From an uncultured candidatus Brocadiaceae bacterium (GTDB lineage: Bacteria > Planctomycetota > Brocadiia > SM23-32), in assembly GCA_964655775.1 (NCBI GenBank), contig CAZZNQ010000006.1:14534-78533 (forward strand): a stretch of 64,000 bases of DNA. The letters run 5' to 3'. The notes beneath the pieces were generated by a model, which was not told where the DNA came from, made no database searches, and saw only the letters and a list, made by a program, of their open reading frames with translations. Of the stretch, positions 5,262 through 19,140 are shown piece by piece. Position 1 is the first letter of the stretch. The number at the start of each line of letters is the position of its first letter. A program made the translations under genes and the position numbers.

Positions 5262-5315
5262 CTGAATGGTGCTCCTCTCATGCAACTCGTTGTGTTATCG
5301 GCACCGACTGTGCCG

Positions 5316-6734
5316 TCAAAGGTATCCGAGGGCGGCGAGCATCTTCTCGCGCGGGTCCCGGTGCTGGGGCGCGCGGCCTAGCGCCCCGATTCGCAGAACG
5401 TCGTACGCCTGCTGCGACGACTCGAACGGCCCCTTCACGTCCCGAGCGCCGTGCCAGCGCGGGTTCGTGTGCATCGGGTTGGTCCGGCCCGTCTCTTTCT
5501 CCCGGCGGGCGATCCAGTCCTGCATCCGCTCCTCCAAAGCCGCACAGATCTTCGGCTCCACATCCGCCAGGTTCTCCGACTCCTCCGGGTCGCGCACCAG
5601 GTTATAGAGCTCCACCTCCGGCTTGAAGTGGAAGTCCGGCTCCAGCGCGTGGATCAGCTTCCACTGGGGCGTGCGCCAGCCGTGCTTGCGCATCCAAGTG
5701 CACTCGGTGATGTAGAACTCCGCCGTGGGAACGCGGCGTTCGCCCGCCATCTCCGGGAACAGGCTCTGTCCCTCGAAGTCGATCTCCCGGTCCACGCCCA
5801 GGATGTCCAGAATGGTCGGCATCACGTCCGCCAGCACGGCGTTGCCGCCGAAGCGGCCGCCCGCCGGCACGGTGCCCGGCATGCGGAACACCAGCGGAAC
5901 GCGCAGCGTCGGCTCGTAGAGACCGTGGTGGTCGAAGTAGCACTCGTGCTCGTAGAGGCTCTCGCCGTGATCGGCCGTGAGCACGACCAGCGTCGACTCG
6001 GCCAGCCCCAGATCGTCCAACGCCCCGAAAAGCCGCTGCAGGCAGATGTCCAGGTAGGCGATGGCGCCGTCGTACTGCGCCACGATGTAATCCTTGTCGG
6101 TGACGTTCGGCGGTATCCAGTTCGTGAAGAACCCGCGGAACGGCTCGAATGCCCGCACCGGGTCCATGGACTTGTTGGCGGCGTCGCACTCGTCGCCACC
6201 GTAGAAGATCCTCTTGAACGGATCCGGGGGCAGGTACGGCGCGTGCGGGTCCATGGCGCGCAGGAAGAGGAAAAATGGCTGCTCGGAATGCGCGGCCTTC
6301 TCGAGCTCCGGCACGGCGACGGCGTTCATCGCTTCCGCCTTGGGGCATTCCGTCTCGCCTTCCGAGGCCCATGCCTGGTAGCTGTGAAGACTCTCAAAGC
6401 CGCGCCCCGCAACGTTATGCTCGAAGCCGACGGAACTGGTCAGATAGCCCTCCTCGCGCAGCACCTCCGCCAGCGTCGGCACGCCCTCGGCCATTGGGCC
6501 GACGTGCCGGAGCGCGACGGTATCCGTGCCGAAGCAGTCCCGTCCCGTCAGGATACCGCCGAAGGCGGGCGTGGTCGGGATGTGCGGGCTGAAACAGTTC
6601 TCGAACACTGCCCCACCGGCCGCGAAGCGGTCGACGTGGGGCGTGGTCAGGTGGTGGTACCCGTGAAGACTCATGTGGTCGGCCCGAAGGCTGTCCACGG
6701 CTATCAGGAGCAGGTTCGCCTTGTCGGTCGTCAT
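5316..6734 (-). CDS. sulfatase-family (alkaline-phosphatase superfamily) hydrolase, cytoplasmic paralog lacking the formylglycine motif
   Basis: 472-aa ORF and tandem paralog of 3870..5261. It has DSLRADH, and the nucleophile position reads T-T-P-A-F (Thr-Thr at 6570-6575). A 125-aa C-terminal segment is identical to the paralog. Confidence 0.8.
   Translation of the reverse strand: MTTDKANLLLIAVDSLRADHMSLHGYHHLTTPHVDRFAAGGAVFENCFSPHIPTTPAFGGILTGRDCFGTDTVALRHVGPMAEGVPTLAEVLREEGYLTSSVGFEHNVAGRGFESLHSYQAWASEGETECPKAEAMNAVAVPELEKAAHSEQPFFLFLRAMDPHAPYLPPDPFKRIFYGGDECDAANKSMDPVRAFEPFRGFFTNWIPPNVTDKDYIVAQYDGAIAYLDICLQRLFGALDDLGLAESTLVVLTADHGESLYEHECYFDHHGLYEPTLRVPLVFRMPGTVPAGGRFGGNAVLADVMPTILDILGVDREIDFEGQSLFPEMAGERRVPTAEFYITECTWMRKHGWRTPQWKLIHALEPDFHFKPEVELYNLVRDPEESENLADVEPKICAALEERMQDWIARREKETGRTNPMHTNPRWHGARDVKGPFESSQQAYDVLRIGALGRAPQHRDPREKMLAALGYL
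5472..5948. repeat. near-identical duplicated tract, copy B (perfect identity 5608-5921)
   Basis: Same alignment as copy A. The identical 64-aa antisense ORFs at 4252..4446 and 5725..5919 in the ORF track confirm the identity independently. Confidence 0.9.
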
Positions 6735-6777: not shown

Positions 6778-7833
6778 TCAGATCTTGCTCTCTTCGAAGG
6801 TTACGCGCCGTCCCTGTTCCGCCGACTCGTAACAGGCCAGGACAAGGCGCAGCACCGCCCGTCCGTCCTCGGCGGTCGCTATCGGAGCTCGCTCGCCCCG
6901 CAGGAACTCCGCCAGGGGCCGTGCCAGCCCGGCTATCCGTTCCCTCTGGCCGCCGATGTCCGGCAGGTCGCTCACCGTCCATCCGTCCGCGCCCTGGACG
7001 TACCACTTCAACTGGATTCCGCCGGGCGGACGCGGCACGCCGGAACTCGGACCGTCGCCGTAGTTGCCGACGATCATGCCCTTCTCGCAGACGATCTCCA
7101 ACGTGTTCTCGCCCGCCGGGGCGACGAAGGTGCAGGAGACCTCCGCAAACGCGCCGCCGGCGCACCGGTAGACGGCGATGGCGTTGTCGTTTGGGACCGC
7201 CGGATTCAGCAGCGTGCCCATCTCCGCCACCACGCTCACCGGCATTCCCAGTAGCCAGTAGACGAAGTCCACGGCGTGGGCGGCGTCGTCGGCGAAGATA
7301 TCGCGATTCAGGTCCGGCTGCACGTGCCAGGTCTTCTCGAAGTCGGGCCAGAGCTGCGTGGAGAGGCAGTGCCGGCGCCGCACCATGTAGACCTTGCCGA
7401 GCCGACCGTTGCGCAGTAGGTCGCGCGCCTTCAGGTTCTGGGGATCGACGCGCATCTGCCAGGCCATCGTGAACGGCACGCCGCCCCGCTTCACGGCGTC
7501 GACGATGCGGTCGGCCTCGTCCATCGTCAGCGCGATCGGCTTCTGCAGCACGACGGCCTTGCCCGCCTCCGCCGCCGATTCCACGAGATCGGCGTGCAGC
7601 GACGTCTCGGCGGCGACGATAACCGCGTCCACGTCCTGTCGGGAAAGCAGCGCCTCAGCCGACGGCTCCTGCTCCAGTCCGTAGTCGTCGCAGGCCGCGC
7701 CAGCCCGGCCGTTGTCGTGATCCCAACCGGCAACAACGCGGACGCCGATCAAGGGGTCCTCGCGCCACTCGTCGCAGTAGGTGCGCACGTGCCCATGGGC
7801 GAAGCCGAGTATGCCGACGCGGACCGGTTCCAT
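6778..7833 (-). CDS. Gfo/Idh/MocA-family oxidoreductase
   Basis: 351-aa ORF with N-terminal VRVGILGFAHGHVRTY and a QKP variant of the EKP motif (AVVLQKPIALTMDEADRIV). Typical family length. Confidence 0.8.
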   Translation of the reverse strand: MEPVRVGILGFAHGHVRTYCDEWREDPLIGVRVVAGWDHDNGRAGAACDDYGLEQEPSAEALLSRQDVDAVIVAAETSLHADLVESAAEAGKAVVLQKPIALTMDEADRIVDAVKRGGVPFTMAWQMRVDPQNLKARDLLRNGRLGKVYMVRRRHCLSTQLWPDFEKTWHVQPDLNRDIFADDAAHAVDFVYWLLGMPVSVVAEMGTLLNPAVPNDNAIAVYRCAGGAFAEVSCTFVAPAGENTLEIVCEKGMIVGNYGDGPSSGVPRPPGGIQLKWYVQGADGWTVSDLPDIGGQRERIAGLARPLAEFLRGERAPIATAEDGRAVLRLVLACYESAEQGRRVTFEESKI

Positions 7834-7840
7834 GGCTCGG

Positions 7841-8638
7841 CTACCTTCCCAGTGCCTTCAGACAGGCGTTCATGTAGCCCCGGCTCTCTGCGGCCACAAT
7901 CGCCTTCTGGGACAGGTTCAGATGCTTCGCGCCGATCACCTCCAGGCAGACCGGTCCGTCGTAGTCGGCATCGACCATCGCCTTGAAGTAGCCCAACAGG
8001 TCGATGTCGCCGCGCCCGCAGGCCTGATCCTGAGCCAGACCGGGCGAGGGACCCGGGCCCTTGCAGTCGCGGATGTGGACGTGACGCACCCGGTCGATGA
8101 CCTTGGGCAGCGCTTCGGCCGGGTTCTCGCCCGCGCGATGGATGTGGCTGGGGTCCATGTCGATGCCGAACGCCGGGGACTGGATCTTCTCCATGGCACG
8201 CAGCGTAGTGGGCGTATCGTGAATGCAGGCGCCCACGTGCGCCTTCACGCAGAGCGTTACGCCGTGCTCGGTGGCCAGTTCCGCCATGGCCGCCATCTTG
8301 TCGGTCTGGCGGTCGAAGTCCTCCGGCACATCCTCCTTGCCGCCGGGGCCGATGTTTACCACCGGTATCCCCAGCGCCTGCGCGGCCGCGAACGCCATCT
8401 TCAGTCGCTCCGCGTCCAGCGATGCCTCCTCCATGGAGAGCAGTTCTAGACCCAGGTCGGACGCCAGGGCGGTGATATCGTCCGCCTGCTCCTCCCAGCG
8501 GTCCAGCTCCAGATGCTCGCACATGCCCTTTATGGCCGACAGCTCCACGCCGTCGTAACCGGCCCAGGCGATGTGCTCCATGGCCGTCTTCAGATCGTGC
8601 TCCACGAAGAGCACGGAGTTCACTCCCAGCTTGATCAT
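7841..8638 (-). CDS. sugar phosphate isomerase/epimerase (xylose isomerase-like TIM barrel)
   Basis: 265-aa ORF: MIKLGVNSVLFVEHDLKTAMEHIAWAGYDGVELS..., then HVHIRDCKG and DYDGPVCLEV, which are typical blocks of this TIM-barrel family. Confidence 0.8.
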   Translation of the reverse strand: MIKLGVNSVLFVEHDLKTAMEHIAWAGYDGVELSAIKGMCEHLELDRWEEQADDITALASDLGLELLSMEEASLDAERLKMAFAAAQALGIPVVNIGPGGKEDVPEDFDRQTDKMAAMAELATEHGVTLCVKAHVGACIHDTPTTLRAMEKIQSPAFGIDMDPSHIHRAGENPAEALPKVIDRVRHVHIRDCKGPGPSPGLAQDQACGRGDIDLLGYFKAMVDADYDGPVCLEVIGAKHLNLSQKAIVAAESRGYMNACLKALGR

Positions 8639-8684
8639 GTCGGTTGCCTCCGGTAGATCAGGTGCGTTAGTTCGAGACGCCGGA

Positions 8685-9674
8685 TCAGACGTCGACCGAC
8701 TCCCCGGTCTGGAACGATTTGATGGCGCCTTCGATTATGCGCTGTGCGCGCAGGGCCGCTTCGCCGGACGCCTCGATCTGGTCCGGCGGTGTGTCGGCAA
8801 TGAGCTGATCGACCCAGTGCGATATGCGGCTCTTGAACGTGTCGGCGAAGCTGCGCATTCCGCCCAGGTAGTCGTAGCGCTCGACCTCGATGCTGCGCCG
8901 CGGATAGAAGTACAGACGTTCGCAGGCGTCTTCGATCACGAAGCGTCCGTCGGATCCGGCCACGTCGCAGGTCTCCAGTCCGAAGCCGACGCCGGCGTCG
9001 TAACTGCCGGTGAGGTTGCCGACCACGCCGTTCTCGAACAGCATGCCCACCTGGGCATTGGACCAGATGGTGCGCCCCTTGCCCTTCGACAGGAATGCGT
9101 GCACGGTCTTCACATCGCCGCAGAAGTAGCGCATTACGTCGACCGAGTGCGGGTGCAGGGCCCGCATGTGGAACCACGGCGAGGTCTCGTTCGGGTTGTT
9201 GATCCACATGCGCATGTTGATGAGGTGAAGCTGCCCCAGGCGGCCCTGGTCGACCCATTCCTTGGCGCGCAGGGCGGCGGGGGTGAAGCGGTGGTTCAGG
9301 TCGATGGCGTAGGGGACATTCTTCTCCCTGGCCAGCGCGACCATCTCTTCGGCTTCCTCTATGTTGTTCGAGATAGGTTTCTCGCCCAGAACGGGAAACC
9401 CGGCGCCCAGAAGCTCCATAGTGGGCTCGTAGTGATCGCCGCCGTTCTCCACACCGGCGGTGCACATGCTGCACGCGTCGATCTCGATGCCGCTGTCCAG
9501 CATCTCCTGGACGCTGCAAAACGCCTTCGCGTCGTAGGCGTCGGCGGCCTTGTCGGCCTTCTCCTCGATGATATCGCACACGGCGACCACGTCGGCCTGC
9601 TCCAGGTCGGTGTAGACCTGCGCGTGCTTATTGCCGATGTTGCCCAACCCGACGATTCCGATCTTCAGTGCCAT
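8685..9674 (-). CDS. Gfo/Idh/MocA-family oxidoreductase
   Basis: 329-aa ORF: MALKIGIVGLGNIGNKHAQVY and VLGEKPISNNIEEAEEMV. Paralog of 2810..3802. Confidence 0.85.
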   Translation of the reverse strand: MALKIGIVGLGNIGNKHAQVYTDLEQADVVAVCDIIEEKADKAADAYDAKAFCSVQEMLDSGIEIDACSMCTAGVENGGDHYEPTMELLGAGFPVLGEKPISNNIEEAEEMVALAREKNVPYAIDLNHRFTPAALRAKEWVDQGRLGQLHLINMRMWINNPNETSPWFHMRALHPHSVDVMRYFCGDVKTVHAFLSKGKGRTIWSNAQVGMLFENGVVGNLTGSYDAGVGFGLETCDVAGSDGRFVIEDACERLYFYPRRSIEVERYDYLGGMRSFADTFKSRISHWVDQLIADTPPDQIEASGEAALRAQRIIEGAIKSFQTGESVDV

Positions 9675-9795
9675 CTGCTCTTCTCCGACCTGTTACGGGA
9701 TTTGCCGGCAAAACGGTTAGACAATACGTCGGGCGGGACGTCATATCCAGTGAATGCGGCGAAACACGGGGAAATCGCCGTGAAACTCACCGGCT

Positions 9796-10974
9796 TCAGG
9801 CCGGCCTTCCCTCATATTCGCTCTCCGCCGCCTGCACGGCACGTCCGTCGCCCGGCGCCGCGTCCATCTCCGCGAGCACGGTTTCCAGGGCGTGGAGGGC
9901 CGCTGTGACATGCTTTTTCGTGGCGCTCTCACCCATGAGACCGATGCGCCATGCTTTGCCCTTGAACTCGCCGAGTCCGCCGCCGAACTCGATGCCGTGG
10001 TCCGCCAGCAGACGCCTGCGCACTTCGGCCTCGTCGACCCCCTCGGGAGCGCCGACGGCATTGAGCATGGGAAGCTGGTGATCGGGGTCGGCCAGGTACC
10101 GCAGGTCCAGGGCCTCCAGCCCGGCCTTCAGCGCACGGTGATGGCCGAGGTGCCGTCGCCATCGCCGCTCAAGTCCTTCCTCCACCACGATGCCGAGGGC
10201 CGCGTGGAGGCCGTAGATCATGTTCACCGGCGCGGTGTGATGGTAGAGGCGCTCTGTGCCCCAGTACTGCCGCACCATGCCCATGTCCAGATACCAGCTC
10301 TGCACCTTGTCCTTCCGACTCGACATGGCATCTTCGGCGGCGCGGCTGAAGGTCACGGGCGCCAGGCCGGGCGGACAAGACAGGCATTTCTGGCTTCCTG
10401 AGTAGCAGGCGTCGATCTGCCAGCCGTCCACGTCCACCTCCATGCCGCCAAGGCTGGTCACAGCGTCCACGAGGAGCAGGGCGCCTTCTTCATGAACCAC
10501 TTCGCTGACCGGCTCGATCGGCTGGGCGGCGCCCGTGCTGGTCTCGGCATGAACGATGCCCACCAGCTTGAAAGGCCCCTCCTCCCACATGGCATCCCGG
10601 ATCTGCTCCGCGGCGAACACGCGGCCCCAGGGCACGCTGACGGTAGTCACCTCGGCACCGGCCCGCTCGGCCACGTCGGCCATGCGCGTGCCGAACACGC
10701 CCTGGACGCAGACCAGCATTCGATCGCCCGGCTCCACCAGATTGACCACACAGGTTTCCATGCCGGCCGATCCGGTCCCGCTGACAGCGAGCGTAAGTTC
10801 GTTCTCCGTCTGGAACACGACCTGGAGACGGGCTCGCACGTCGTTAAGGACTTCAAGGAACTGAGGGTCGAGGTGGCCGATCGTGGGTCGGGCCATCGCT
10901 TCAAGAACGCGGGGATTGACGTCCGACGGTCCCGGCCCCATCAGCATCCGCGGCCATATGTCTTCGGTGTTCAT
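9796..10974 (-). CDS. class V aminotransferase (alanine-glyoxylate/serine-pyruvate aminotransferase-like)
   Basis: The ORF track starts at 11133. ATG at 10974 gives [27 protein letters not shown]. Other blocks are [20 protein letters not shown] and the PLP-lysine context YSGSQKCL. Confidence 0.85.
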
Positions 10975-10999
10975 CTGCGGCTGTCTCCGTTCGTCGGGA

Positions 11000-11968
11000 T
11001 CAGCGGTTGTAGTCCGGAATCGGTCCGCGCAGCTCGTCCCACACGGCGTCACAGCCCTCCAGCACGTCCTCGGGCAGCGGCCCGCTGCAGGCGGCCAGGT
11101 TCTGGTCCAACTGGGCCGGCGAGCTGGCCCCAAGGATGATGCACGAGACGTCCGGCTGCGATAGCAGCCAACGCAGGGACAGCTCGACGAGCGAGATCCC
11201 CGCCTTGTCGGCGACTTCGCCGAGCCGGCTCACCGCGTCGAAGAGCCTGTCGTGCCAGTAGCGCCCGCGATACATCTCTTTTCGCCCGAAGCGCGTGTCC
11301 TCGTCCGGCTTCGTGCCCTTGGTGTGCTTGCCGGTCAGCAGTCCGCCGGCCAGCGGATTGTAGACCAGCGTCCCGAGGCCGAACTCGCGGCACATCGGCA
11401 GCAGTTCCTGCTCTATGCCGCGCGCGATCAGGTTGTACATCGGCTGCACGCTGACGATCGGGTGCCAGTCCCGACGGTCGCAAATCCAGAGCGCACGGCA
11501 GATCTGCCAGGCGGCGTAGTTCGAGACGCCGGCGTAGCGCACCTTGCCGGAGCGCACGAGTTCGTCCAGAGCGCCCAATGACTCCTCCAGCGGTGTGGTG
11601 TAGTCCGGCTGATGGAGCTGATACAGGTCGACGTAGTCCATCGAGAGTCGGCGCAGGCTGTCATCCACCGCCTTCAGGATGTGTCGCCGGGATAGCCCGC
11701 GGTCGTTCTCGCCGGGCCCCATCGGATTGAATACTTTGGTGGCGACGACGACCTCATCCCGCCGTCCGCGAAGGGCCTTGCCGAGAATCTCTTCGGAGAC
11801 TCCCTTGTTGTAGGCATCGGCGGTGTCGAAGAACGTCACGCCTGCGTCGAGGCACCGCTCCACCATGCGGATGGATTCGGCCTCGTCGGCTTGATCGCCG
11901 AACGTCATCGTGCCCATGCACAGCCGTGAGACTTTGAGTCCACAGTTTCCCAGACCCGGATAATCCAT
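11000..11968 (-). CDS. aldo/keto reductase
   Basis: The ORF track starts at 12463, and that extension overlaps the RraA-like gene in another frame. ATG at 11968 gives MDYPGLGNCGLKVSRLCMGTMTFG. It also has FFDTADAYNKG and VVATKV. Confidence 0.85.
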   Translation of the reverse strand: MDYPGLGNCGLKVSRLCMGTMTFGDQADEAESIRMVERCLDAGVTFFDTADAYNKGVSEEILGKALRGRRDEVVVATKVFNPMGPGENDRGLSRRHILKAVDDSLRRLSMDYVDLYQLHQPDYTTPLEESLGALDELVRSGKVRYAGVSNYAAWQICRALWICDRRDWHPIVSVQPMYNLIARGIEQELLPMCREFGLGTLVYNPLAGGLLTGKHTKGTKPDEDTRFGRKEMYRGRYWHDRLFDAVSRLGEVADKAGISLVELSLRWLLSQPDVSCIILGASSPAQLDQNLAACSGPLPEDVLEGCDAVWDELRGPIPDYNR

Positions 11969-11984
11969 GCTCTCGCCCCTTTCG

Positions 11985-12716
11985 CTACTGACCCTCCGGC
12001 TCCACCGTGAAGTCCATCGGAAGGCCCAGTTTCTCGTAGAGCTTCCGCCGCCCTGCGCTGTCGCCCTCGTGAACGGTGCGCGCATACGCGGCCACGTCCT
12101 TTGCCCGGTCGTAAGGCACGACGATGACGCCGTCCCCGTCCGCCACCACCACGTCTCCCGGCCGCACGAACACCCCGCCGACCGTGACCGGCTGCATGGT
12201 GGACTCCAGTTCGAGCCGGCCCGGTCGGATGCCGCGCCAGACGCCCGGACAGTAAACGGGGAAGCCCTGCTTGATGATCTCATCGGTGTCGCGCGCGCCG
12301 CCGTTGGTGACGGCGCCGACGATGCCGGCCGCCATCCAGTCCAGTGAATTCGCCGACCCGATGTAGCCGCAGTCCTTGACGCCTGCCGCGTCGATGACCA
12401 GGAAATCGCCGGCATGAATCTCAGCGGACCTGGGTCCCTGGGCCAGCTTGCCGTACCACTCACCGCGGAACTTCCGGTATTCTTCCACAGTGTCGAAAAC
12501 GGGTGCCCGCTTGTTCGTCGGCACGAAGCGTAAGGTATGGGCGATGCCGTAGGCGCGGTGCGAGAACGAATCGATGTCGCGCCAGAGCGGGCGGATCTCC
12601 CTGTCCATCAGGCCGACGTCCTGCAGCCCGACGGCGTCCATGCCGTCGCACACGTCGGTCACGCGAAGGCCGTTGAACAGCCCGAGCACCTCTTGCCTCT
12701 CGTCCTGCGTTGCCAT
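11985..12716 (-). CDS. RraA-family protein (putative 4-hydroxy-4-methyl-2-oxoglutarate aldolase/oxaloacetate decarboxylase-like)
   Basis: 243-aa ORF with LRVTDVCDGMDAVG, GDFLVIDAAG, GAVTNGGARDTDEI and VRPGDVVVADGDGVIVVP, which are typical RraA-fold blocks. Confidence 0.75.
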   Translation of the reverse strand: MATQDERQEVLGLFNGLRVTDVCDGMDAVGLQDVGLMDREIRPLWRDIDSFSHRAYGIAHTLRFVPTNKRAPVFDTVEEYRKFRGEWYGKLAQGPRSAEIHAGDFLVIDAAGVKDCGYIGSANSLDWMAAGIVGAVTNGGARDTDEIIKQGFPVYCPGVWRGIRPGRLELESTMQPVTVGGVFVRPGDVVVADGDGVIVVPYDRAKDVAAYARTVHEGDSAGRRKLYEKLGLPMDFTVEPEGQ

Positions 12717-12835
12717 CGTACGTCTCCCGGTCCATCGGATTCGTCGACACGGCCCGGCTGCATCCGGACCACCATCAGGGCGATTCTAACATCGGCGCGG
12801 CGGGAGTCCAACGGAGGGCAAATCCGGTCACGTGA

Positions 12836-12864
12836 TTGACTTGCCCCGGGCAGCCCTCTAGGAT
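12836..12864 (+). promoter_or_regulatory. sigma70-type promoter candidate for the ACS-like gene
   Basis: TTGACT (12836-12841), a 17-nt spacer, then TAGGAT (12859-12864). It lies in the divergent intergenic region, about 63 nt upstream of ATG 12934. Confidence 0.55.
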
Positions 12865-12933
12865 GGGAGTTGGCGGGGGGCGCCATGTACTCGGCCGCCG
12901 GCTCGCCCTGTTCCAGGTAAGCGAGACCGGCCG

Positions 12934-14766
12934 ATGATGATAGAAACCGTGGCCCAGTTACTGGCCGCCCTGCCGGAGAAGCTGCACACGTTCGAGGGAA
13001 GTGCATACCCGCTTCCGCTGTGCCAGGCCGTTCTTGGACGCCTTCCGGAGATATCGGAGATAGCAGACGCGGCGCGCTCCGATGACGGCGACGTGGGGCA
13101 CCACTCTCTGCACGTGGCCATGGCAGCGGAGTGCTACGAGGCGGCGCACCCGGACGCCGACGACGCGTTCGTGAAGGACGCCCGCCTGCGGAGTATGGTC
13201 TTCATGGGCGGCAAGTGGCGCGCCGGCTGGACCTTCATTCTGGGCGACGAGAGCGAGACCATCGTCCCGAGCCTGGAACAGAGGAACTTCATGGTCCAGG
13301 TTGGCGGGCCGCGCGCGACCTGGCCGGTGTACTGGCTCCAGATGATGGTGCGGTACGCAATGATCTGGGGTCAGATCCCGCCGGGCGAGGACCATGAGAT
13401 GGGCCATCTGCTGGAGGAGGATCTGCCCGGTGTGCTGATAGTACGCGGACGATGCAGCGAACTGGAATGCGTGCTGGCAATGGCGATGATGAAGCTGGGA
13501 TGCCCCGCCGTGGTGCCCCACGACTTCCCGTTCGAGGAGGGGCGGCAGGCCCGGGTCCATACCGAAGAAGAAGCCTTAAACGCCATCGCGACGCTGCCCA
13601 ACATGCGCGTGCGCGAGCAGGAAGGCGTGCGCACGGCCCTTCCCGACTACTGCAACCCCGCCCGTGCCAAGGAACCGTTTGAGGCCGCGTCAACCATCGG
13701 CGGCGGGGACAGCTTTCTGTTGTTGCGGCCCGGACAGGCCGGTGACGGCATCGAGATCATCGGTGATCCGACCGGCGGCATCGGCGTACTCATCGAGGTG
13801 GGCGACCCGCGCCTGGCCGTGGCCACGTCCGCCTACGTCGAGCGGACCGCGCTCGCTCTGCCTGACTACATGGAGGGGGTGCGCGTATTGGAGAAGGCGC
13901 CGCTGACCGTCGGACTGGCCGCGGGCGTCAGCCTGGATCCCGCCAAGCTGGCGAATGCACTTCACGCGGGCCTGCGGTGGCATTTCCCGCGCCTGCAGGA
14001 CATCCACGTGAAGCTGGTCTTTGAACCGGACGAGCTGGCAAGGGAAAGCACACGCGCGCGGCAGTTCGAACGCGAGCGAGAGCGAATCCGGGCAGAAGAG
14101 ACTGAGGCCGGCGTGGACCTGTTCGTGTCCTGCATCGAGTGCCAGACGTTTACGCACCGGCACGTGTGCATCGTCACCCCGGGGCGTCCTCCCATGTGCG
14201 GCCGCGACCCCGACCAGGTGCGGGCGGCGGCGCTGTTCGGCGCTACCTGGCACCCCTACCTGCGGCGTGGACTCAAGGCGCAGGACCTGCGGGAGATGGT
14301 GGACAAGGGCCGCTGCATCGATCCTCTGCGCGGCGAGTATGAAGGCGTCAACGAAGCGGTGCGACGGCTCTCCGACGGCGCGATCCAGCGCGTCTACCTG
14401 CACAGCCTGCGCGACTTCCCGCACAGTTCCTGCGGGTGCTTCCACTACCTGGCCTTCGAGATCGAGGGCTGCGGCATAGGGATCATGGATCGGAGCTTTC
14501 CGGGCAAGGCACCCAACGGCGAGACCTGGGACTCGCTGGCCAACCGAGCGGGCGGGAAGCAGACGCCCGGCATCACGGGCATCAGCGCCGGCTACCTGCG
14601 CAGCCCGGACTTCCTGAAGGCCGACGGCGGGCTCAAGAGTGTGGTCTGGGTAACTGCGAAGGTGATGGACCAGATAGAGGACTTGCTCCCCGGGGATCGG
14701 GGTCCCGCAACGGAACAGGATGCAGCGAGCATGGAGGAGCTGCGGGCTTACATCAGTCAAGGCTGA
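12934..14766 (+). CDS. acsB: acetyl-CoA synthase (CODH/ACS A-cluster subunit, AcsB/CdhC family) homolog, stand-alone
   Basis: 610-aa ORF. FVSCIECQTFTHRHVCIVTPGRPPMCG (14131-14209) reproduces the C-x2-C-x8-C-x9-C [4Fe-4S] pattern of ACS. SSCGCF (Cys-Gly-Cys at 14431-14439) matches the Ni-binding motif. Further ACS-like blocks are IDPLRGEYEGVN, GGKQTPGITGIS and FLKADGGLKSVVWV. Confidence 0.85.
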   Translation: MMIETVAQLLAALPEKLHTFEGSAYPLPLCQAVLGRLPEISEIADAARSDDGDVGHHSLHVAMAAECYEAAHPDADDAFVKDARLRSMVFMGGKWRAGWTFILGDESETIVPSLEQRNFMVQVGGPRATWPVYWLQMMVRYAMIWGQIPPGEDHEMGHLLEEDLPGVLIVRGRCSELECVLAMAMMKLGCPAVVPHDFPFEEGRQARVHTEEEALNAIATLPNMRVREQEGVRTALPDYCNPARAKEPFEAASTIGGGDSFLLLRPGQAGDGIEIIGDPTGGIGVLIEVGDPRLAVATSAYVERTALALPDYMEGVRVLEKAPLTVGLAAGVSLDPAKLANALHAGLRWHFPRLQDIHVKLVFEPDELARESTRARQFERERERIRAEETEAGVDLFVSCIECQTFTHRHVCIVTPGRPPMCGRDPDQVRAAALFGATWHPYLRRGLKAQDLREMVDKGRCIDPLRGEYEGVNEAVRRLSDGAIQRVYLHSLRDFPHSSCGCFHYLAFEIEGCGIGIMDRSFPGKAPNGETWDSLANRAGGKQTPGITGISAGYLRSPDFLKADGGLKSVVWVTAKVMDQIEDLLPGDRGPATEQDAASMEELRAYISQG

Positions 14767-14798
14767 TGTCCCTGCTGTCCCTCGCCTGCCTCTCAGGG

Positions 14799-14827
14799 TT
14801 GACCGGGAGCCGCCCTTCTGTTAGGCT
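14799..14827 (+). promoter_or_regulatory. sigma70-type promoter candidate
   Basis: TTGACC (14799-14804), a 17-nt spacer, then TAGGCT (14822-14827). It lies between the ACS-like stop and ATG 14870. Confidence 0.45.
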
Positions 14828-14869
14828 ACCGGAGCCGTATTCTCACGTCCTTTGACTGGGAGGCAGAGG

Positions 14870-16486
14870 ATGGAGGGCCTGCGCGGCCACAGGGCGGCGG
14901 TCTTTCTGGTGGTTGCTTTTGCTCCGCTCGCCCTGGCGGCGGGCTGTGCGCAGAGCGCCAACGGCGCTCGAAGCGAGAGAGCCCTGCCGAGGAAGTCCTC
15001 GATCGAGCAATACGGCATACGCTGGACCTTCGACCGTCCGACGCCTGTGGGGCAGTTCCTGAACGGCGACTGCTACGTGGTCGGGCCGGTAACGGTGACG
15101 GCCGTGGACCCGCCGCCGGTCAGAGCCGCGGACATCCCGCTTGACCAGCTAACTGGACGCGAACGGAAGATGGACGCCGCAAGCCGGATACGGAACGGGT
15201 CCATGCTCAACCCTCCGGCATGGGGCAAGGTATCCTACGACAGCCGAATCCGCAACGCCTACCGGCCCGATCTTATCACTCCGTTCCCGGTTCGGATGCA
15301 ACCGGGCGATACGCTGGTTTCCAGCGTAAGCTACCGGCAGATGGGAACCGCCCGCCGGATGCTCAATCCGTCCCGCAGGGCGGTGAGCCCGGTGCGAACC
15401 GCCGCCGTGCTGACCTGTCTTGCCGCGCCCGTGCCGGAAGACGCGTTCCGGCCTTGCTACGCAAATCCCGATCGGAAGATCTACCTCGGGCGAGATCTGC
15501 GGCGCCACCTGCTGCCGTCATTCAGCCGTGTGCCAAGCACCCCTCCAGTTGAGGAATGGGAGCGGGTGTTCCAGCGTCCCTGGCTGGACACGGTCTTCTT
15601 CGGCTTCGGGGCGCCCGAGGAGAACATGCCCGATTACGGTCGCGAAATAGGCGAGGCCTCAGGCATCGCAGCCCTGCTTCTGTGCACCGATCTGCCGATG
15701 GAGAGCAAGGAAAAGCTCATGGTCAACTTCGTGCAGGTCGGTATAGACAACTGGGGCCTGCTCCGAGCAGGCTGCCCGGGTTGGCGAGCCCACGGTGGCC
15801 ACGGCAGCGGCCGCAAACTGCCTATCGTATTCGCCGGGCTGTTGCTGGGCGATGAAGAGATGGCGTCGCCCACGAATAGTATCCCCGGCGCCGAGTTCAG
15901 CGAGGACATGCAGACGATGTACGACACCTGCTGGACCGGGGCGGAAGTGGTCTACGCCGGGCACGTCGGCAGGGACGGTGACGGCTCCTGGGGACCTTAC
16001 GAGCATCTGGAGCCGCGCGACTGGCTGGGACTGACCGGCGAGAGCTACCGCCGCTGCTGCACCAGCGTCTGCTGGGTGGGCCAGGCCCTCGCGGTCCACA
16101 TGCTGAACGCACGCCCGCAATGGAATCACGACGCATTTCTCGATTACTGCGACCGCTGGATGTTCGAGGACGACACCGAGCACGTCCGCATTATCAAGGA
16201 ACAGACCGGCCGCGACTTCTCAGCGGATTACCTGCGCCAGGGCCAGACGTGGTACCCCTTCGTAGACGAGATGTGGGCAAAGCACCGAAAGAACCTGCCG
16301 GCGCCGACCGACGGATGGAAGCGGCCGCACCGGCAACGTCGGCACCGGTTCCAGCCACGAGCAGAGGAACACAATGGTCAACATGTACCACGACGGCGAC
16401 GCGGATCTCGGCTGCCTGACGGGCCGGCGCATCGCCGTGATCGGCTACGGCAACCAGGGACGCTCCCAAAGTCTGAATCTGCGTGA
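14870..16486 (+). CDS. hypothetical lipoprotein (unknown function)
   Basis: The ORF starts at TTG 14852. ATG at 14870 is preceded by GGAGGCAGAGG. It has a signal plus lipobox (VVAFAPLALAAGC). The first roughly 500 aa have ordinary composition. The last roughly 37 aa are Arg-rich and overlap ilvC by 113 nt. Confidence 0.65.
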   Translation: MEGLRGHRAAVFLVVAFAPLALAAGCAQSANGARSERALPRKSSIEQYGIRWTFDRPTPVGQFLNGDCYVVGPVTVTAVDPPPVRAADIPLDQLTGRERKMDAASRIRNGSMLNPPAWGKVSYDSRIRNAYRPDLITPFPVRMQPGDTLVSSVSYRQMGTARRMLNPSRRAVSPVRTAAVLTCLAAPVPEDAFRPCYANPDRKIYLGRDLRRHLLPSFSRVPSTPPVEEWERVFQRPWLDTVFFGFGAPEENMPDYGREIGEASGIAALLLCTDLPMESKEKLMVNFVQVGIDNWGLLRAGCPGWRAHGGHGSGRKLPIVFAGLLLGDEEMASPTNSIPGAEFSEDMQTMYDTCWTGAEVVYAGHVGRDGDGSWGPYEHLEPRDWLGLTGESYRRCCTSVCWVGQALAVHMLNARPQWNHDAFLDYCDRWMFEDDTEHVRIIKEQTGRDFSADYLRQGQTWYPFVDEMWAKHRKNLPAPTDGWKRPHRQRRHRFQPRAEEHNGQHVPRRRRGSRLPDGPAHRRDRLRQPGTLPKSESA

Positions 16487-17366
16487 CAGCGGCTTGCAGG
16501 TGACGGTCGGATGCCGGGAGGACGAGTACGCCGCACGGGCACGCGAGGACGGATTCGAGGTGCTCGCACCCGTCGAAGCTGCCGCGGCCGGCGAGGTGAT
16601 TCTGATTCTCATACCCGATGAGGTCCAGCCGGGCGTCTTCGAGGCAAGCGTCGCACCGGGGCTTGTGCAAGGGGACGCTCTGGTCTTTGCCAGCGGATAC
16701 AACATCGCCTTCGATCTCGTCCACCCGCCGAGTTTCGTGGACATCTTGATGGTCGCTCCGCGGATGATCGGCCAGGCGGTTCGCAGCTGCTTCCTGGAGG
16801 GGGAGGGATATCCCTGCTTCGTCGCCTGCGAACAAGATGCTTCGGGGCACGCATGGGAGACGGCGCTGGCCGTGGCGCTAGCCATCGGTGCTACACGTGG
16901 CGGTGCAGTGGAAGCCACCTTCCTTGAGGAAGCCCTGATCGACCTGTTCGCCGAGCAGTTCCTGTGGGCGGGCATAGTGCGGCTGTTCCGCACGTACTAC
17001 GACGTACTGACGGCAGCGGGGTGCAGTCCCGAGACCGTGGCGACCGACATGTACCTCTCCGGCGAGATGGTGGAGATAGCGCGGGCAATGCGCGAAACCG
17101 GCTTCTTCAAACAGATGGAACTGCATTCGCAGACGAGCCAGTACGGGCAGCTCTCACGCGGCGACAGGGTGATCGGCCCACAGGTGCGGCAGGTCGCACT
17201 CGAGATCCTGGACGAGATACGCAGCGGCAAGTTCGCTGAAGAGTGGACCCGTGAACAGGCCGAAGGAAAGCCCCACCTGGCCCGTCTCAAGCAGGGAGCA
17301 TTCGCCCATCCGCTCAACCGGGTCGAAGAGCGCCTGAAGCGCACCGCAGAGGGAGAATCTCCCTGA
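16374..17366 (+). CDS. ilvC: ketol-acid reductoisomerase (class I)
   Basis: 330-aa ORF with RBS GAGGA 5 nt upstream. MVNMYHDGDADLGCLTGRRIAVIGYGNQGRSQSLNLRDSG matches the KARI N-terminus and NADPH loop. Typical class I length. Confidence 0.85.
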   Translation: MVNMYHDGDADLGCLTGRRIAVIGYGNQGRSQSLNLRDSGLQVTVGCREDEYAARAREDGFEVLAPVEAAAAGEVILILIPDEVQPGVFEASVAPGLVQGDALVFASGYNIAFDLVHPPSFVDILMVAPRMIGQAVRSCFLEGEGYPCFVACEQDASGHAWETALAVALAIGATRGGAVEATFLEEALIDLFAEQFLWAGIVRLFRTYYDVLTAAGCSPETVATDMYLSGEMVEIARAMRETGFFKQMELHSQTSQYGQLSRGDRVIGPQVRQVALEILDEIRSGKFAEEWTREQAEGKPHLARLKQGAFAHPLNRVEERLKRTAEGESP

Positions 17367-17373: not shown

Positions 17374-19140
17374 CTACCGCAGTACGCGTTCCACCTCCGC
17401 CTGGAACCGCTCGGCGAACTCCTGCTCATGCTCCGTCATCCTGCGGCGGAGTTCGTCCTCGGGCAGCTTCGTCCAGCGTTTCCGGCCGTTCAACTCGTTG
17501 TGCAGCGACTTGTACGGCCCGAAGAAATGCCGGTCGAAGACACGGTCGGCGGCGGCGCTCAGTTGCCGCTGCTGGGCGGCCGTCGCTCCCGCGGCGACGT
17601 ATGGTCGGACGGCGTCCGCCTTGTAGGAATCCCACTGGCGCTGCGAACGGACGAGTGTGTAATACTCGTTCTCACGCGCGATGCGGTCCGGCAACGAGAG
17701 TTCGCGCCACTCCTGCGGGATGAACGGGTCCTCCGCCTTCGCAAGCCATCCGACCAGCTCGCCCTGCAACTCGGCCCTCACGTCCGCATAAGCCGGATCG
17801 TCCACCAGGTTGTTGAGCTGGAACGGATCCTCCTGATCGTCGTAGAGCAGCCATTCGCCTTCAGCGTACACCACGTACGTGTACCGTTTCGTGCGGACGC
17901 CGCGGAACGGGTAGAAGTAGTTCCAGTCGTCGGGCACGAGTTGGCTGCGGTAGTAGTTGCGCTGGAAGTTGTTGACCAGGATGAACTGGGAACTCGGGTC
18001 CGGACCGTTGCCGCCCAGCACCACCGGCGAGAAGTCCTGCCCGTCGCAGCGGTCGGGCGGCGCGATGCCGGCAAGGCCGCAGAGCGTCGGATAGAGGTCG
18101 ATTGTGCCCAACAGGTTATCGGCGATTCGGCCGGCCTCCACGCGTCCCGGCCATCGCACCATGAAGGGACAGTGGATCGCCTCGGTGTAGGGATTGCCCT
18201 TGCTGCCGACGCCGTTCGAGCCGAACGAACTGCCGTGGTCGGAGCTGTAGACCAACACCGTGTCTTCGTCGATACCCAGCTCCTTCAGTGCGTCCATCAG
18301 ACGGCCGAGCTGCCGGTCCACCGCGCTGATGTGGGCATGGTAGTGCTGGTAGTAGAGCAGGCTATTCCCCTGTTTGTACCTCTCCTCCGTCACGTTCGGC
18401 CGGAAGTAGAGGTCGTCCTGGGGATAGAGATCAACGAACTCCTCCGGCGCGTCGTCCCATCGCCAGTGCGGCGGATTCCAGGAGAGCATCACCAGGAACG
18501 GCTTGTCTCCGTGGGCATTGGCCCGGATGAAGTCCAGAGCCTGATCGGTCATGCCGATGGCGTTGTACCCCTTCACGGGATGGAAGTCCTCGCCGGACGG
18601 GATGTCGCGCACCGGCGTCTCCCAGTGGTTGTCGCCGTACTGCCAGTGCTTGAAATAGTCGAATCCCGCGTTGGCGCAGGTCTGGTTCTTCAGGTGCCAC
18701 TTCCCCACGTAGCCGGTGACGTAGCCGGCGTCCTTGAAGGTGTGGGCGATGGTGGGCGCGTCGATCCCGATGATGTCGCCGTTCTCGTAGTAGTCGTTGC
18801 TGATGATGCCGGTGCGGTGCGGCCACATGCCGGTGATAAGCATTCCGCGGAACGGGATGCAGATGGCGGAGGTGCTGAAGCAGTTGTCGAAGCGCGTTCC
18901 CTCGCGTGCCATGCGCTCCATGTTGGGAGTCACCATCTGCGGCATCTGCGTGAACGGCAGGCTGCACCATCGGTGCTCGTCGGTGAAGGCGAAGATGACG
19001 TTGGGGCGCTTCCGGCCGTGGCGGGCCTGCGACGCTTGAACTCCGGCCAGTGGGCCCAGGGTCGCCGCGGCGGCAGCGGCGGTACCCATCTTGAGAAAAC
19101 CTCGCCGTCCGATCCGCTTCGCTTTGTTGCCTGCACTCAT
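17374..19140 (-). CDS. Tat-exported formylglycine-dependent sulfatase (arylsulfatase family)
   Basis: 588-aa ORF with a twin-arginine signal (GRRGFLKMGTAAAAAA). The canonical FGly motif is present: SAICIPFRGMLITG (C-x-P-x-R). It also has NVIFAFTDEH and YSSDHG blocks. Confidence 0.85.
   Translation of the reverse strand: MSAGNKAKRIGRRGFLKMGTAAAAAATLGPLAGVQASQARHGRKRPNVIFAFTDEHRWCSLPFTQMPQMVTPNMERMAREGTRFDNCFSTSAICIPFRGMLITGMWPHRTGIISNDYYENGDIIGIDAPTIAHTFKDAGYVTGYVGKWHLKNQTCANAGFDYFKHWQYGDNHWETPVRDIPSGEDFHPVKGYNAIGMTDQALDFIRANAHGDKPFLVMLSWNPPHWRWDDAPEEFVDLYPQDDLYFRPNVTEERYKQGNSLLYYQHYHAHISAVDRQLGRLMDALKELGIDEDTVLVYSSDHGSSFGSNGVGSKGNPYTEAIHCPFMVRWPGRVEAGRIADNLLGTIDLYPTLCGLAGIAPPDRCDGQDFSPVVLGGNGPDPSSQFILVNNFQRNYYRSQLVPDDWNYFYPFRGVRTKRYTYVVYAEGEWLLYDDQEDPFQLNNLVDDPAYADVRAELQGELVGWLAKAEDPFIPQEWRELSLPDRIARENEYYTLVRSQRQWDSYKADAVRPYVAAGATAAQQRQLSAAADRVFDRHFFGPYKSLHNELNGRKRWTKLPEDELRRRMTEHEQEFAERFQAEVERVLR

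Follow-up and report, generated by a model that had tools for sequence, protein, structure and literature searches.

We describe here a gene for an intact but very divergent three-domain homolog of acetyl-CoA synthase (ACS, AcsB-type), encoded at positions 12934..14766 of the plus strand (610 aa, stop codon included) in a 64,000-nucleotide stretch of DNA, referred to below as the window. ACS is among the very few enzymes that use nickel-carbon bonds, and its presence is usually taken to indicate the Wood-Ljungdahl pathway and ancient autotrophy. The novelty lies in a distinct ACS family that is divergent, partner-less and remodelled around the active site. We give about even chances to the reading that the ORF encodes a working representative of an AcsB-type subfamily that is deeply divergent, orphan-encoded and apparently undescribed. 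The window protein probably carries out nickel-based one-carbon chemistry in a new metabolic setting, because it is an intact, divergent ACS relative that is always encoded without a CO-making partner.

The ORF has a coding-type composition (GC3 0.83, GC2 0.46). In a Pfam scan, PF19436 is the sole match of the protein (residues 383-585, E 6e-40), with no match to PF03598 (CdhC), and the acsB/cdhC models of NCBIfam match as well (190-217 bits). Among PDB sequences, phmmer finds CdhC (E 1.5e-42) and bacterial ACS (E 8e-38), while hhalign aligns the protein to the canonical ACS profile with a probability of 100% over 596 columns. The AF2 model (pLDDT 93, pTM 0.88) has the three-domain ACS fold, including domain A1, and its best Foldseek matches are full-length bacterial ACS structures in the closed state (E 1e-39 to 1e-40, TM 0.64). 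An earlier note, made from the letters of the window, had proposed a stand-alone A-cluster homolog; this is borne out by the profile searches, the structure model, the phylogeny and about 112 distinct related loci.

The A-cluster domain, A3 (aa 386-585; 14089..14688, +), is identified by Pfam (PF19436, E 6e-40), phmmer and hhalign. It contains the predicted [4Fe-4S]/proximal-Ni ligand motif Cys400-x2-Cys403-x8-Cys412-x9-Cys422 (14131..14199, +), inside which lies the gate residue Phe406 (nt 14149-14151, +; aligned with Phe512), and the predicted distal/proximal Ni-binding tripeptide Cys500-Gly501-Cys502 (14431..14439, +), which is part of an SCGCF found in nearly all family members. In phmmer, both motifs match the A-cluster ligands of solved ACS/CdhC column for column, and hhalign concurs: all seven positions (Cys506/509/518/528 and Cys595-Gly596-Cys597 in M. 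thermoacetica numbering, for which a Moorella-like sequence with a constant +4 offset was used as reference) correspond to Cys400/403/412/422 and Cys500-Gly501-Cys502. The tripeptide thus lies where the earlier note had placed it, and the flanking ACS blocks that it had listed are found in the translation, namely GGKQTPG (residues 540-546) and ADGGLKSVVW (563-572). The four-Cys motif with AcsB spacing is likewise present, but it had been extended a few bases too far, to 14209. Between the two Cys motifs is a family-specific insertion (aa 435-446; 14236..14271, +) that falls in a gap of the canonical profile in hhalign and in which Pro441 and Arg444 are nearly invariant among 30 family members; it had been counted as 11 residues and has 12. 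Across these 30 members, which share 32-70% identity, C400, C403, F406, H410, C412, C422, C500, G501, C502 and F503 are invariant (the four-Cys motif in 30/30). Such invariance of ligand and gate residues argues for purifying selection on the orphan ACS-like family.

The cluster motif begins 106 residues earlier than in Moorella-type AcsB (Cys400 vs. Cys506). The shortening of about 100 aa reported N-terminal to the cluster is therefore real, yet it leaves the N-terminal domain in place, shorter and conserved. This domain, A1 (aa 1-235; 12934..13638, +), is Rossmann/prismane-like according to Foldseek and hhalign, and the model matches the isolated ACS N-terminal domain 6yua_A with an E of 2e-10. 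Of the two domains without the cluster, A1 is the more conserved in the orphan family, with a mean column identity of 0.44 vs. 0.30 for the same domain of canonical ACS, while A2 is poorly conserved. By this measure of the alignments, selective constraint has moved from A2 to A1 relative to canonical ACS.

Domain A1 also holds the family signature segment MMVRYAMIWGQIPPGEDHEMGH (13345..13407, +), with Met138, Trp145, His154 and His158 located from alignments. Met138 aligns with the tunnel residue Ala222 and Trp145 with the alcove residue Phe229 (M. thermoacetica numbering), while His154 and His158 are invariant in the orphan family. Among 138 full-length proteins, the His pair is present in 95 and in 0 canonical ACS. 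The same set has W/Y in the family vs. F in canonical ACS at position 145, M/L vs. A at position 138, and F vs. L/I/V at position 90, while position 307 is His in 27 canonical proteins and L/A/I/V in the orphan family. The window protein has the full family signature: Phe90, Met/Leu138, Trp/Tyr145, His154-x3-His158, a non-His residue at 307, and CGC. A zincin reading of HEMGH was rejected, since the Glu is not conserved (HRMGH, HQMGH and HAASH in relatives). Phe229 is a CO alcove residue of Moorella ACS, in which the F229W substitution raises CO binding 80-fold (PMC11321310); Trp is the natural residue at the equivalent position of the window protein. As for the other alcove residues, Phe512 is kept as Phe406, and the Gly145/Ile146/Val149 segment is aligned by hhalign, with low confidence, to Val89/Phe90/Gly93. 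A manual alignment with Arg96 at the alcove Val149 position was dropped for this hhalign register, which is itself of low confidence. We infer the spatial placement of His154/His158 and of the alcove residues from the sequence.

The middle domain, A2 (aa 236-385; 13639..14088, +), is poorly conserved and has Leu307 and Thr325 in place of the canonical CoA-contact His and Trp. In C. autoethanogenum, the acetyl-CoA contacts in A2 are Arg383, His386, Gly399-QRD and Trp405 (bioRxiv 10.1101/2024.08.05.606187). Two independent alignments indicate that the conserved contacts are not kept in the window protein (His386 is replaced by Leu307, Trp405 by Thr325, and QRD is absent). The QRD..W..RIS motif of canonical ACS is missing from it, and Arg304, the equivalent of Arg383, is variable in the family (R/K/Q). 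Without the CoA-contact His and Trp, acetyl-CoA is a less likely substrate.

The distance from canonical AcsB and CdhC is evident in the profile scores of the window protein, namely: 192.6 bits vs. a cut-off of 355.95 for TIGR00316 (cdhC), 190.7 vs. 800 for NF040764, 195 vs. 809 for NF007078, and 217 vs. 372 for NF003379. In NJ trees, the protein groups with the orphan ACS-like family, which we define here as proteins of about 600-650 aa that have PF19436 only and the signature residues, and that are without a Pfam or NCBIfam model of their own. An orphan superclade apart from AcsB/CdhC is recovered in 91/100 NJ bootstraps, as the distinct clade envisaged in the earlier note would lead one to expect; monophyly of the CGC-bearing family alone is recovered in 46/100. 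The branches of the superclade are CGC, CSC and Ni-less. Sister clades have lost the Ni-binding Cys, and the clade without the Ni-binding Cys pair is also without the His pair. In the literature, we found no description of an orphan, stand-alone or ACS-like family, and a July 2026 preprint on ACS phylogeny makes no mention of such an orphan clade. The family is apparently undescribed.

About 112 distinct loci make up the orphan ACS-like family, 48 of them genome-derived, all from MAGs, and spread over more than 10 phyla. In the genome scan, the single window protein as query gave no matches, whereas the family alignment did. The distribution is patchy and HGT-like, and almost every intact locus encodes a full-length protein. 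Polysaccharide degraders rich in sulfatases are frequent among the carriers, and the habitats of origin include freshwater sediment, peat and termite gut. The nearest homologs and the gene content suggest a Planctomycetota-like organism as the source of the window. The carrier lineages found in the scan include Peptococcaceae, Eubacteriaceae, Dehalococcoidales and Spirochaetota, which include acetogens or Wood-Ljungdahl users.

Within the 64-kb window, a Pfam scan of the 41 called genes revealed no CODH, CFeSP, methyltransferase AcsE or CooC, in agreement with the earlier note, and B12-binding, RACo and MetE-like genes are likewise absent from it. Two URO-D-like genes are present, 18 and 34 kb from the ACS-like ORF. 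The immediate neighbours are those described previously: an RraA-like gene (-), a gene for an unknown 544-aa protein (+), ilvC (+) and a sulfatase gene (-). About 70 nt upstream of the ATG is a sigma-70-like promoter match, TTGACT-17-TAGGAT (12836..12864, +). The site had been read as the gene's own promoter; it exists, but as a consensus match only (9/12 positions), and 2 promoter-like sites were found in the region vs. 0.2 expected. No terminator-like site was found downstream of the gene, and the sequences preceding the gene in the window and in 49 loci contain no SAM, cobalamin or NiCo riboswitch at or above the Rfam gathering score.

In the relatives, whose contexts were covered over +/-4 to 10 kb around each locus, there is no CODH, CFeSP or CooC among the 117 nearest neighbours of 40 loci, and none of these is recurrent in the 112 distinct loci. 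The commonest Pfam family among the 117 neighbours has only 3 members (Pfam census), and neither all-versus-all neighbour clustering nor the Pfam census yielded a universally conserved partner gene in the 112 distinct loci. For most loci, the neighbours give no functional hint. The two genes that recur most often, both immediately 5' of the ACS-like gene and in its orientation, encode a MerR-family regulator (9-11 loci) and a flavodoxin (8-11 loci); they point to a stress/redox regulon rather than methionine synthesis. Other neighbours are Crp/Fnr with a PNPOx-like flavoprotein, HxlR with a nitroreductase, an AhpC fusion, rubrerythrin/ferritin/Fur, and pyridine-nucleotide disulfide oxidoreductases. 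When the adjacent Crp, MerR and HxlR regulators were compared with the CooA, HcpR, SoxR and NmlR models, all scores were far below the cut-offs.

In a Planctomycetota operon, the ACS-like gene is located within a sulfate-to-homocysteine cluster. In five loci (L014, L013, L053, L072 and L086) it directly follows ThiF and JAB with overlapping starts and stops, while L103 retains only JAB upstream. MetY and ThiS were both identified upstream only in L014, which also has PAPS reductase and sulfite reductase; a MetY match was found in L053 as well. This MetY/ThiS/ThiF/JAB context is confined to one subclade. The operon of L025 (Phycisphaerales) encodes the ACS-like protein, MetY, a B12-binding corrinoid protein, an MtaA-like methyltransferase (best PDB match 4ay7, 1.6e-26) and RACo, and it is the one locus in which the corrinoid/MtaA/RACo cluster was found. 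In addition, L008, a member of the window's own subclade, has a URO-D/MtaA-like gene upstream, separated by 4 nt, and such a gene is also present in L007 and L061. These operons suggest that relatives perform CODH-independent methyl/CO/acetyl chemistry, possibly with a putative role in supplying methyl groups for methionine.

Bacterial AcsB (M. thermoacetica, C. hydrogenoformans and C. autoethanogenum; 1OAO, 1MJG, 7ZKJ and 6YTT) shares the A1-A2-A3 architecture and fold with the window protein, and the two are identical in the four [4Fe-4S] Cys, the Cys-Gly-Cys, the gate Phe (F512), the Phe after CGC, and GGKQTPG. However, the window protein is only 21-23% identical to it, has an A1 about 100 residues shorter, is encoded without the CODH, CFeSP and CooC gene cluster, and differs by the invariant His154/His158, the 12-residue A3 insertion, and the replacement of Phe229 by Trp and of Ala222 by Met. 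Archaeal/bacterial CdhC (ACDS beta subunit, 9C0S), the best single-sequence PDB match (1.5e-42), is matched over A2-A3, including the C-terminal ATE..L..F tail. Unlike the window protein, in which A1 is strongly conserved, CdhC is without this domain, and it works in a five-subunit complex with CODH and CFeSP, none of which is encoded near the window gene; with the CdhC models, the window protein reaches 193-217 bits vs. cut-offs of 356-372. The model also resembles the closed form of the monomeric C. hydrogenoformans ACS (1RU3, 7NYP; 7nyp_A, TM 0.63 in Foldseek). That enzyme can occur as a free monomer and, in this form, use external CO, and it is presumably an ordinary acs-operon product; its sequence features are canonical, unlike those of the window protein.

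A CODH-independent ACS had been regarded as functionally novel, but it has a precedent. According to a passage of PMC7005905 that cites Zhuang et al. 2014, Dehalococcoides mccartyi has a canonical AcsB with AcsCD and without CODH that supplies the methyl group of methionine. The same source (Deobald et al. 2020, PMC7005905) contains the proposal that this AcsB cleaves acetyl-CoA, CO being released and the methyl group passing via a corrinoid protein to homocysteine; AcsB is accompanied there by AcsCD (CFeSP) and core-MetE (PMC7005905). A pathway of this type resembles the L025 operon of a relative and not the window, from which AcsCD and a corrinoid-dependent methionine synthase are absent. 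The orphan family forms its own clade with altered CoA contacts; its genes have no AcsCD nearby and mostly stand without any partner. The set analogous but non-homologous to that of Dehalococcoides (MtaC-like, MtaA-like, RACo and MetY) occurs only in L025.

In the mechanism that we propose, the A-cluster would be assembled and would support nickel-centred methyl/CO/acetyl chemistry without a tunnel-coupled CODH. Judging from the alignment, the gas pocket beside the proximal Ni would be retained but tighter, and because Met takes the place of the tunnel-side Ala, CO would enter or leave via the solvent on domain opening. The thiol or acyl partner would differ from the CoA of canonical ACS, or would bind differently. 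The methyl partner would not be the two-subunit CFeSP; a small corrinoid protein acting with a methyltransferase of the MtaA type (URO-D family) is more likely, the corrinoid protein possibly being reactivated by RACo and/or low-potential flavoproteins. [quoted passage not shown] In the alternative direction, CO and methyl groups would be scavenged into an acetyl thioester. A more elaborate version, of which we are more doubtful still, is that the family may be the methyl-generating (or -accepting) Ni module of a folate-independent methionine/methyl-thiol route and an ACS sister superclade outside the Wood-Ljungdahl pathway. An A-cluster devoid of CODH and CFeSP would split the acetyl thioester, the methyl group would reach homocysteine or sulfide on a small corrinoid protein with the help of an MtaA-type methyltransferase, or even through C-S bond formation mediated directly by Ni, and His154/His158 would act at the A1-A3 interface. 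Against a methionine role, no partner gene adjoins the ORF in the window.

The retention of all A-cluster ligands and of the three-domain fold would also be expected of an ordinary Wood-Ljungdahl ACS that is encoded away from cooS/acsA, acsCD, acsE and cooC located elsewhere in the genome. The absence of CODH and CFeSP covers the 64-kb window and +/-4 to 10 kb in relatives, and some carrier lineages (Peptococcaceae, Eubacteriaceae, Dehalococcoidales and Spirochaetota) are generally known to include users of the pathway. We nevertheless consider this explanation quite improbable in view of scores far under the equivalog cut-offs, the separate superclade (91/100), the loss of the His386/Trp405 equivalents and of the QRD..W..RIS motif, the change of the tunnel Ala to Met, and an A1 shorter by about 100 residues. 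Canonical acsB is typically clustered with CODH/CFeSP genes, yet no such neighbour is recurrent in the 112 distinct loci, and many carriers are sulfatase-rich polysaccharide degraders.

A second explanation, which we hold to be unlikely, is that the protein belongs to a stress/redox regulon and that its Ni-Fe-S site binds or converts a toxic small ligand (CO, possibly NO, N2O or an electrophile) with flavodoxin-type electrons, rather than forming C-C bonds in anabolism. The MerR-family regulator (9-11 loci) and flavodoxin (8-11 loci) that are commonest upstream on the same strand fit this explanation, as do the Crp/Fnr, HxlR/nitroreductase, AhpC fusion, rubrerythrin/ferritin/Fur and disulfide oxidoreductase neighbours, and the alcove Trp would favour tight CO binding. 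However, the regulators matched no specific signal model (scores far below the cut-offs), such contexts occur in some subclades only and not in the window, and the flavodoxin is equally explicable as the reductive activator needed by any A-cluster; moreover, ACS chemistry alone could not detoxify CO without a methyl donor. Finally, the protein could be a non-catalytic relic or an accessory protein (for example a sensor, or a carrier of Ni or Fe-S) in which the ligands persist but no turnover takes place. This would account for the missing obligate partner and the patchy, HGT-like distribution, and the loss of Ni ligands in sister clades implies that the scaffold tolerates loss of ACS chemistry. 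It is made highly improbable by the metal ligands and the gate Phe, which are strictly invariant across phyla along with about 50 other positions, by the full length retained in nearly all intact loci, and by the co-variation of the His pair with the Ni-binding Cys pair, as expected of a working active site.

If the protein is instead a functional, orphan-encoded ACS relative, a widespread family keeps the residues of the Ni-Ni-[4Fe-4S] site and has shed CODH, CFeSP and the CoA-binding residues, which suggests that evolution has put the A-cluster scaffold to other chemical uses. The family would also amount to a naturally occurring test of changes in the CO alcove (Phe to Trp, Ala to Met) and of how an ACS works with free rather than tunnelled CO. 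Should the methionine link be true, folate-independent methyl supply of the Dehalococcoides type would extend to many uncultured anaerobes. Since the orphan family retains the site but not the partners, an 'acsB/cdhC' label that is assigned automatically in a metagenome can wrongly be read as a sign of carbon fixation; several family members are labelled 'acetyl-CoA decarbonylase/synthase beta subunit' by JGI.

The ACS-like gene occupies an open reading frame of 610 aa at 12934-14766 (+). Its codon-position GC values (GC1 0.70, GC2 0.46 and GC3 0.83) mark it as a real gene for a window with a GC content of 65.7%, and the long antisense ORFs across it were rejected as high-GC artefacts with an inverted codon-position pattern. 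The earlier note had described two cysteine motifs, two flanking sequence blocks and a promoter, and all of these are present with only small coordinate slips: C400-x2-C403-x8-C412-x9-C422 (nt 14131-14199, +), C500-G501-C502 (nt 14431-14439, +), the GGKQTPG and ADGGLKSVVW blocks and, 5′ of the gene, a promoter-like TTGACT-17-TAGGAT at 12836-12864 (+) that is a consensus match only. No terminator-like site was found 3′ of the gene. A second promoter-like site (TGGACT-16-TAGAAT, extended TG; 12783-12810, -) faces the divergent RraA-like gene, and the 218-bp intergenic region between the RraA-like and ACS-like genes may hold two divergent predicted promoters.

Profile searches matched the protein to ACS/CdhC, as had been proposed from its motifs. 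The only Pfam match is PF19436 (ACS/CODH beta subunit C-terminal; E 6e-40, residues 383-585), and four NCBIfam cdhC/acsB models match at 190-217 bits, their cut-offs being far higher (356-809). Using phmmer against PDB sequences, matches were obtained to Methanosarcina CdhC (9c0s_E, 1.5e-42) and C. hydrogenoformans ACS (8e-38; query 131-585, chain 214-681), the Cys motifs being in register in the latter; Cys400 is the equivalent of Moorella-type ACS Cys506. An AlphaFold2 model built from a 30-sequence family alignment (mean pLDDT 93.1, pTM 0.88) was placed by Foldseek nearest to full-length closed-state bacterial ACS in the PDB (8cjc_B, 1mjg_M, 7zkj_B and 7nyp_A; E about 1e-39 to 1e-40, TM 0.63-0.64, 21% identity). 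When the family was compared, profile against profile, with 12 canonical AcsB representatives, the probability was 100% over 596 columns (23% identity), with a 12-residue insertion (residues 435-446) between the two Cys motifs. The structure matches and the profile-profile alignment therefore identify the window protein as a three-domain AcsB-type homolog. Of the earlier description of a truncated N-terminal region, the shortening holds but a domain loss does not: the isolated N-terminal ACS domain 6yua_A was also matched (E 2e-10), and the N-terminal ‘prismane/Rossmann’ domain is shortened yet present.

A word-indexed search returned 85 homologous proteins, including one group at 57-70% identity and one large group at 36-45% (600-650 aa, PF19436 only), labelled, where named, as Sumerlaeota, Chloroflexota, Anaerolineae, Poribacteria, Humimicrobiaceae and Coriobacteriia; a canonical ACS appears only at E 3e-25. 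An exhaustive representative search gave 422 ACS-superfamily clusters (E ≤ 1e-3), with scores declining steadily from the family, i.e. orphan ACS-like proteins keeping Cys-Gly-Cys and a His154/His158 pair, to canonical AcsB/CdhC. A neighbor-joining (NJ) tree computed on the shared core sets the family apart as a separate block, with two more non-canonical groups beside it. The CSC clade (P0099, P0101, P0103 and P0113) has Cys-Ser-Cys instead of Cys-Gly-Cys and keeps the His pair, while the Ni-less clade (P0123, P0128, P0130, P0159, P0166 and P0111) retains the four [4Fe-4S] cysteines but neither the two Ni-binding cysteines nor the His pair. This distribution suggests that the His pair functions jointly with the Ni site. 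NJ bootstrapping (248 columns, 100 replicates) separated an ‘orphan’ superclade, comprising the family and both clades, from canonical AcsB/CdhC in 91/100 replicates, in line with the distinct clade envisaged earlier; the CGC-bearing family alone was recovered in 46/100. Pfam and NCBIfam hold no dedicated model for the family, whose members are annotated at source as ‘hypothetical protein’ or, automatically, ‘acetyl-CoA decarbonylase/synthase beta subunit’, and no description of a partner-less ACS clade was found by full-text literature searches or in the most recent ACS phylogeny preprint (July 2026).

Across 30 members, C400, C403, F406, H410, C412, P416, R418, C422, C500, G501, C502 and F503 are invariant in the A-cluster domain (A3), as are K94, G98, W99, T129, R140, Y141, G151, H154 and H158 in the N-terminal domain (A1). 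Canonical positions were read from a Moorella-like representative (P0209) that differs from M. thermoacetica numbering by a constant +4, verified at Gly145/Ile146/Val149, Ala222, Phe229, Cys506 and Cys595-597. By alignment, tunnel Ala222 becomes Met138, alcove Phe229 becomes Trp145, gate Phe512 remains phenylalanine (Phe406) and, with low confidence, alcove Ile146 becomes Phe90. An A222L variant was reportedly designed to obstruct the ACS tunnel. Assuming that the constant +3 offset of Phe512/Phe515 applies, Ala222 would equal C. hydrogenoformans Ala225, variants of which have been crystallised (PDB titles). Phe229 is a wall residue of the CO alcove, and the F229W exchange increases CO binding 80-fold (PMC11321310). 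In C. autoethanogenum ACS, acetyl-CoA is contacted by Arg383, His386, Gly399 and Trp405 (bioRxiv 10.1101/2024.08.05.606187); these residues fall within an ERRxH...GQRDxxW motif. The counterpart of Arg383 is Arg304, which varies among Arg, Lys and Gln; those of His386 and Trp405 are Leu307 and Thr325, and Gly399 has no equivalent. This stretch was aligned with high confidence by hhalign, and MAFFT independently produced a concordant alignment.

These substitutions recur among 138 full-length superfamily proteins, 95 of which have the His pair at 154/158 (92/95 also with C-x-C) and 43 of which, canonical ACS and non-canonical clades, do not. In the His-pair proteins position 145 is W in 77 and Y in 17, position 138 is M in 76 and L in 15, position 90 is F in 89, and position 307 is L/A/I/V; in the other 43 these positions are F (26), A (20), L/I/V and His (27), respectively. 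Mean column identity in the family vs. the canonical set is 0.44 vs. 0.30 for A1, 0.34 vs. 0.39 for the middle, CoA-contact domain (A2) and 0.52 vs. 0.50 for A3. Constraint has shifted to the N-terminal domain, away from the CoA-binding domain.

The absence of CODH and corrinoid partners near the gene was borne out: a Pfam scan of the 41 called genes in the 64-kb window found no CODH, CFeSP, AcsE, CooC, B12-binding protein or RACo, and tblastn with a relative's proteins of these types gave no match. A scan of GTDB representatives with the family alignment yielded 48 loci, all in MAGs, spanning Planctomycetota, Sumerlaeota, Chloroflexota, Spirochaetota, several Bacillota orders, Armatimonadota, Actinomycetota, Nitrospirota-labelled bins and candidate phyla; a further 80 came from a metagenome scan, for a distinct total of 112. 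The protein tree does not track taxonomy. No universal neighbour exists among the 112 loci, no riboswitch was found upstream of the copies in the window and 49 loci, and when 117 nearest neighbours were sorted by Pfam family, the largest family had only 3 members; by its genomic context the ACS-like gene is a true orphan. Unbiased neighbour clustering over the 112 loci recovered a MerR-type regulator (9), flavodoxin (8), an Mrp/Nuo antiporter-like subunit (6), and an MFS transporter, a URO-D-like protein and an AhpC fusion (5 each), while targeted tblastn found JAB/ThiF in 5-6 loci. A-cluster activation requires a low-potential reductant, so the recurrent small flavoprotein neighbours (flavodoxin, PNPOx-like, nitroreductase) fit an A-cluster enzyme.

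In the most divergent subclade (L042 392-5275; L132, L135, L127, L112 and L105), 1-3 Mrp/Nuo antiporter-like (Proton_antipo_M) genes directly precede the ACS-like gene, an arrangement that may point to a connection with an energy-converting membrane complex. Two ACS-like copies occur within 8 kb in a Spirochaetota MAG (L028; 9091-10950 and 18659-20020) and on different contigs in a Peptococcaceae MAG (L033 and L047). A Planctomycetota MAG labelled Brocadiaceae (L009) has a tRNA-Sec gene (2942-3032, +; Rfam RF01852, 77.6 bits) 7 kb 5′ of its ACS-like gene.

Methyl-transfer and sulfur genes adjoin the ACS-like gene in some relatives. On a 1.5-Mb contig of a Phycisphaerales MAG (L025), a one-strand operon (9783-16672) encodes the ACS-like protein, a MetY-type sulfhydrylase, a 213-aa B12-binding protein, a full-length URO-D family protein whose nearest solved relative is the methylcobalamin:CoM methyltransferase MtaA (4ay7, 1.6e-26), and RACo with Fer2, RACo middle and ASKHA domains. 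The apparent frameshifts in its ACS-like and RACo genes are probably long-read assembly errors. By gene content this is a complete corrinoid methyl-transfer system, with the ACS-like protein as its only obvious methyl-loading enzyme. In L014 (2534-15036) the order is Rrf2 regulator, PAPS reductase, SAM methyltransferase, MetY, ThiS-like, ThiF, JAB, ACS-like, PD40-HEAT-AhpC fusion, C92 amidase and sulfite reductase-TusA, the start and stop codons overlapping all the way from MetY to ACS-like. The ThiF-JAB-ACS-like part is common to L013, L053 (also with a MetY match), L072 and L086, and only JAB is found in L103. The cluster joins sulfate assimilation to a set of genes like that by which Wolinella makes homocysteine via a protein thiocarboxylate, and its ACS-like gene occupies a slot where methionine synthase might be expected. 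At the L025 locus and in the L014 subclade, the ACS-like proteins are 41-42% identical to that of the window. Members of the window's own subclade carry a divergent URO-D/MtaA-like gene immediately 5′ of the ACS-like gene, separated from it by 4 nt in L008 and found again in L007 and L061. Dehalococcoides offers a precedent: without CODH, it cleaves acetyl-CoA by AcsB/AcsCD with release of CO, and a corrinoid-dependent core-MetE is proposed to pass the methyl group on to homocysteine (PMC7005905).

The best-supported reading is that the ACS-like protein would belong to a new orphan subfamily and work as an A-cluster enzyme, carrying out CODH-independent methyl/CO/acetyl chemistry with a putatively tightened gas pocket, a probably altered thiol or acyl site and predicted methyl partners other than CFeSP. 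Among specific roles, the foremost candidate is methyl supply for methionine or for methyl-thiols; its strongest operon support comes from one locus and one subclade, and the window is without a partner gene. The commonest context, MerR with flavodoxin, matches a redox or stress role just as well.

The gene content of the window is sulfatase-rich and carbohydrate-oriented, similar to that of the Planctomycetota MAGs holding the nearest homologs (58-63% identity), and includes GH43, beta-helix proteins, an ECF sigma factor, a Ser/Thr kinase and ankyrin-repeat proteins. A dense set at 3870-6734 (-), 17374-19140 (-), 2810-4090 and 6778-9674 (-) comprises three sulfatases, three GFO/IDH/MocA oxidoreductases and one xylose-isomerase-like TIM-barrel, with GH43 and beta-helix genes further on. 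The ACS-like gene thus lies in a sulfated-polysaccharide utilisation neighbourhood; a similar context surrounds a distant family member (P0083, L055). Directly downstream, a 544-aa ORF (14852-16486, +) matches nothing in Pfam or NCBIfam and lacks homologs in all 137 related loci. It extends at its 3′ end over the predicted ilvC start (16374), overlapping it by 113 nt, so that one of the two boundaries is probably wrong. Two URO-D/MtaA-family paralogs (PF01208) lie at 33108-34163 (+; E 1.5e-21) and 48563-49639 (-; E 4.9e-20); their identity to the URO-D-like genes adjoining the ACS-like gene in related Planctomycetota loci is only about 25%. The former is preceded by a 402-aa ORF with no assigned function (31855-33063) and overlaps a beta-carbonic anhydrase gene (34160-34843, +) by 4 nt. 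Finally, a 1548-aa protein (24753-29399, +) with many ankyrin repeats as well as leucine-rich repeats, a eukaryote-like architecture unusual in a bacterium, is followed by a 268-aa ankyrin-repeat protein (29796-30602, +).
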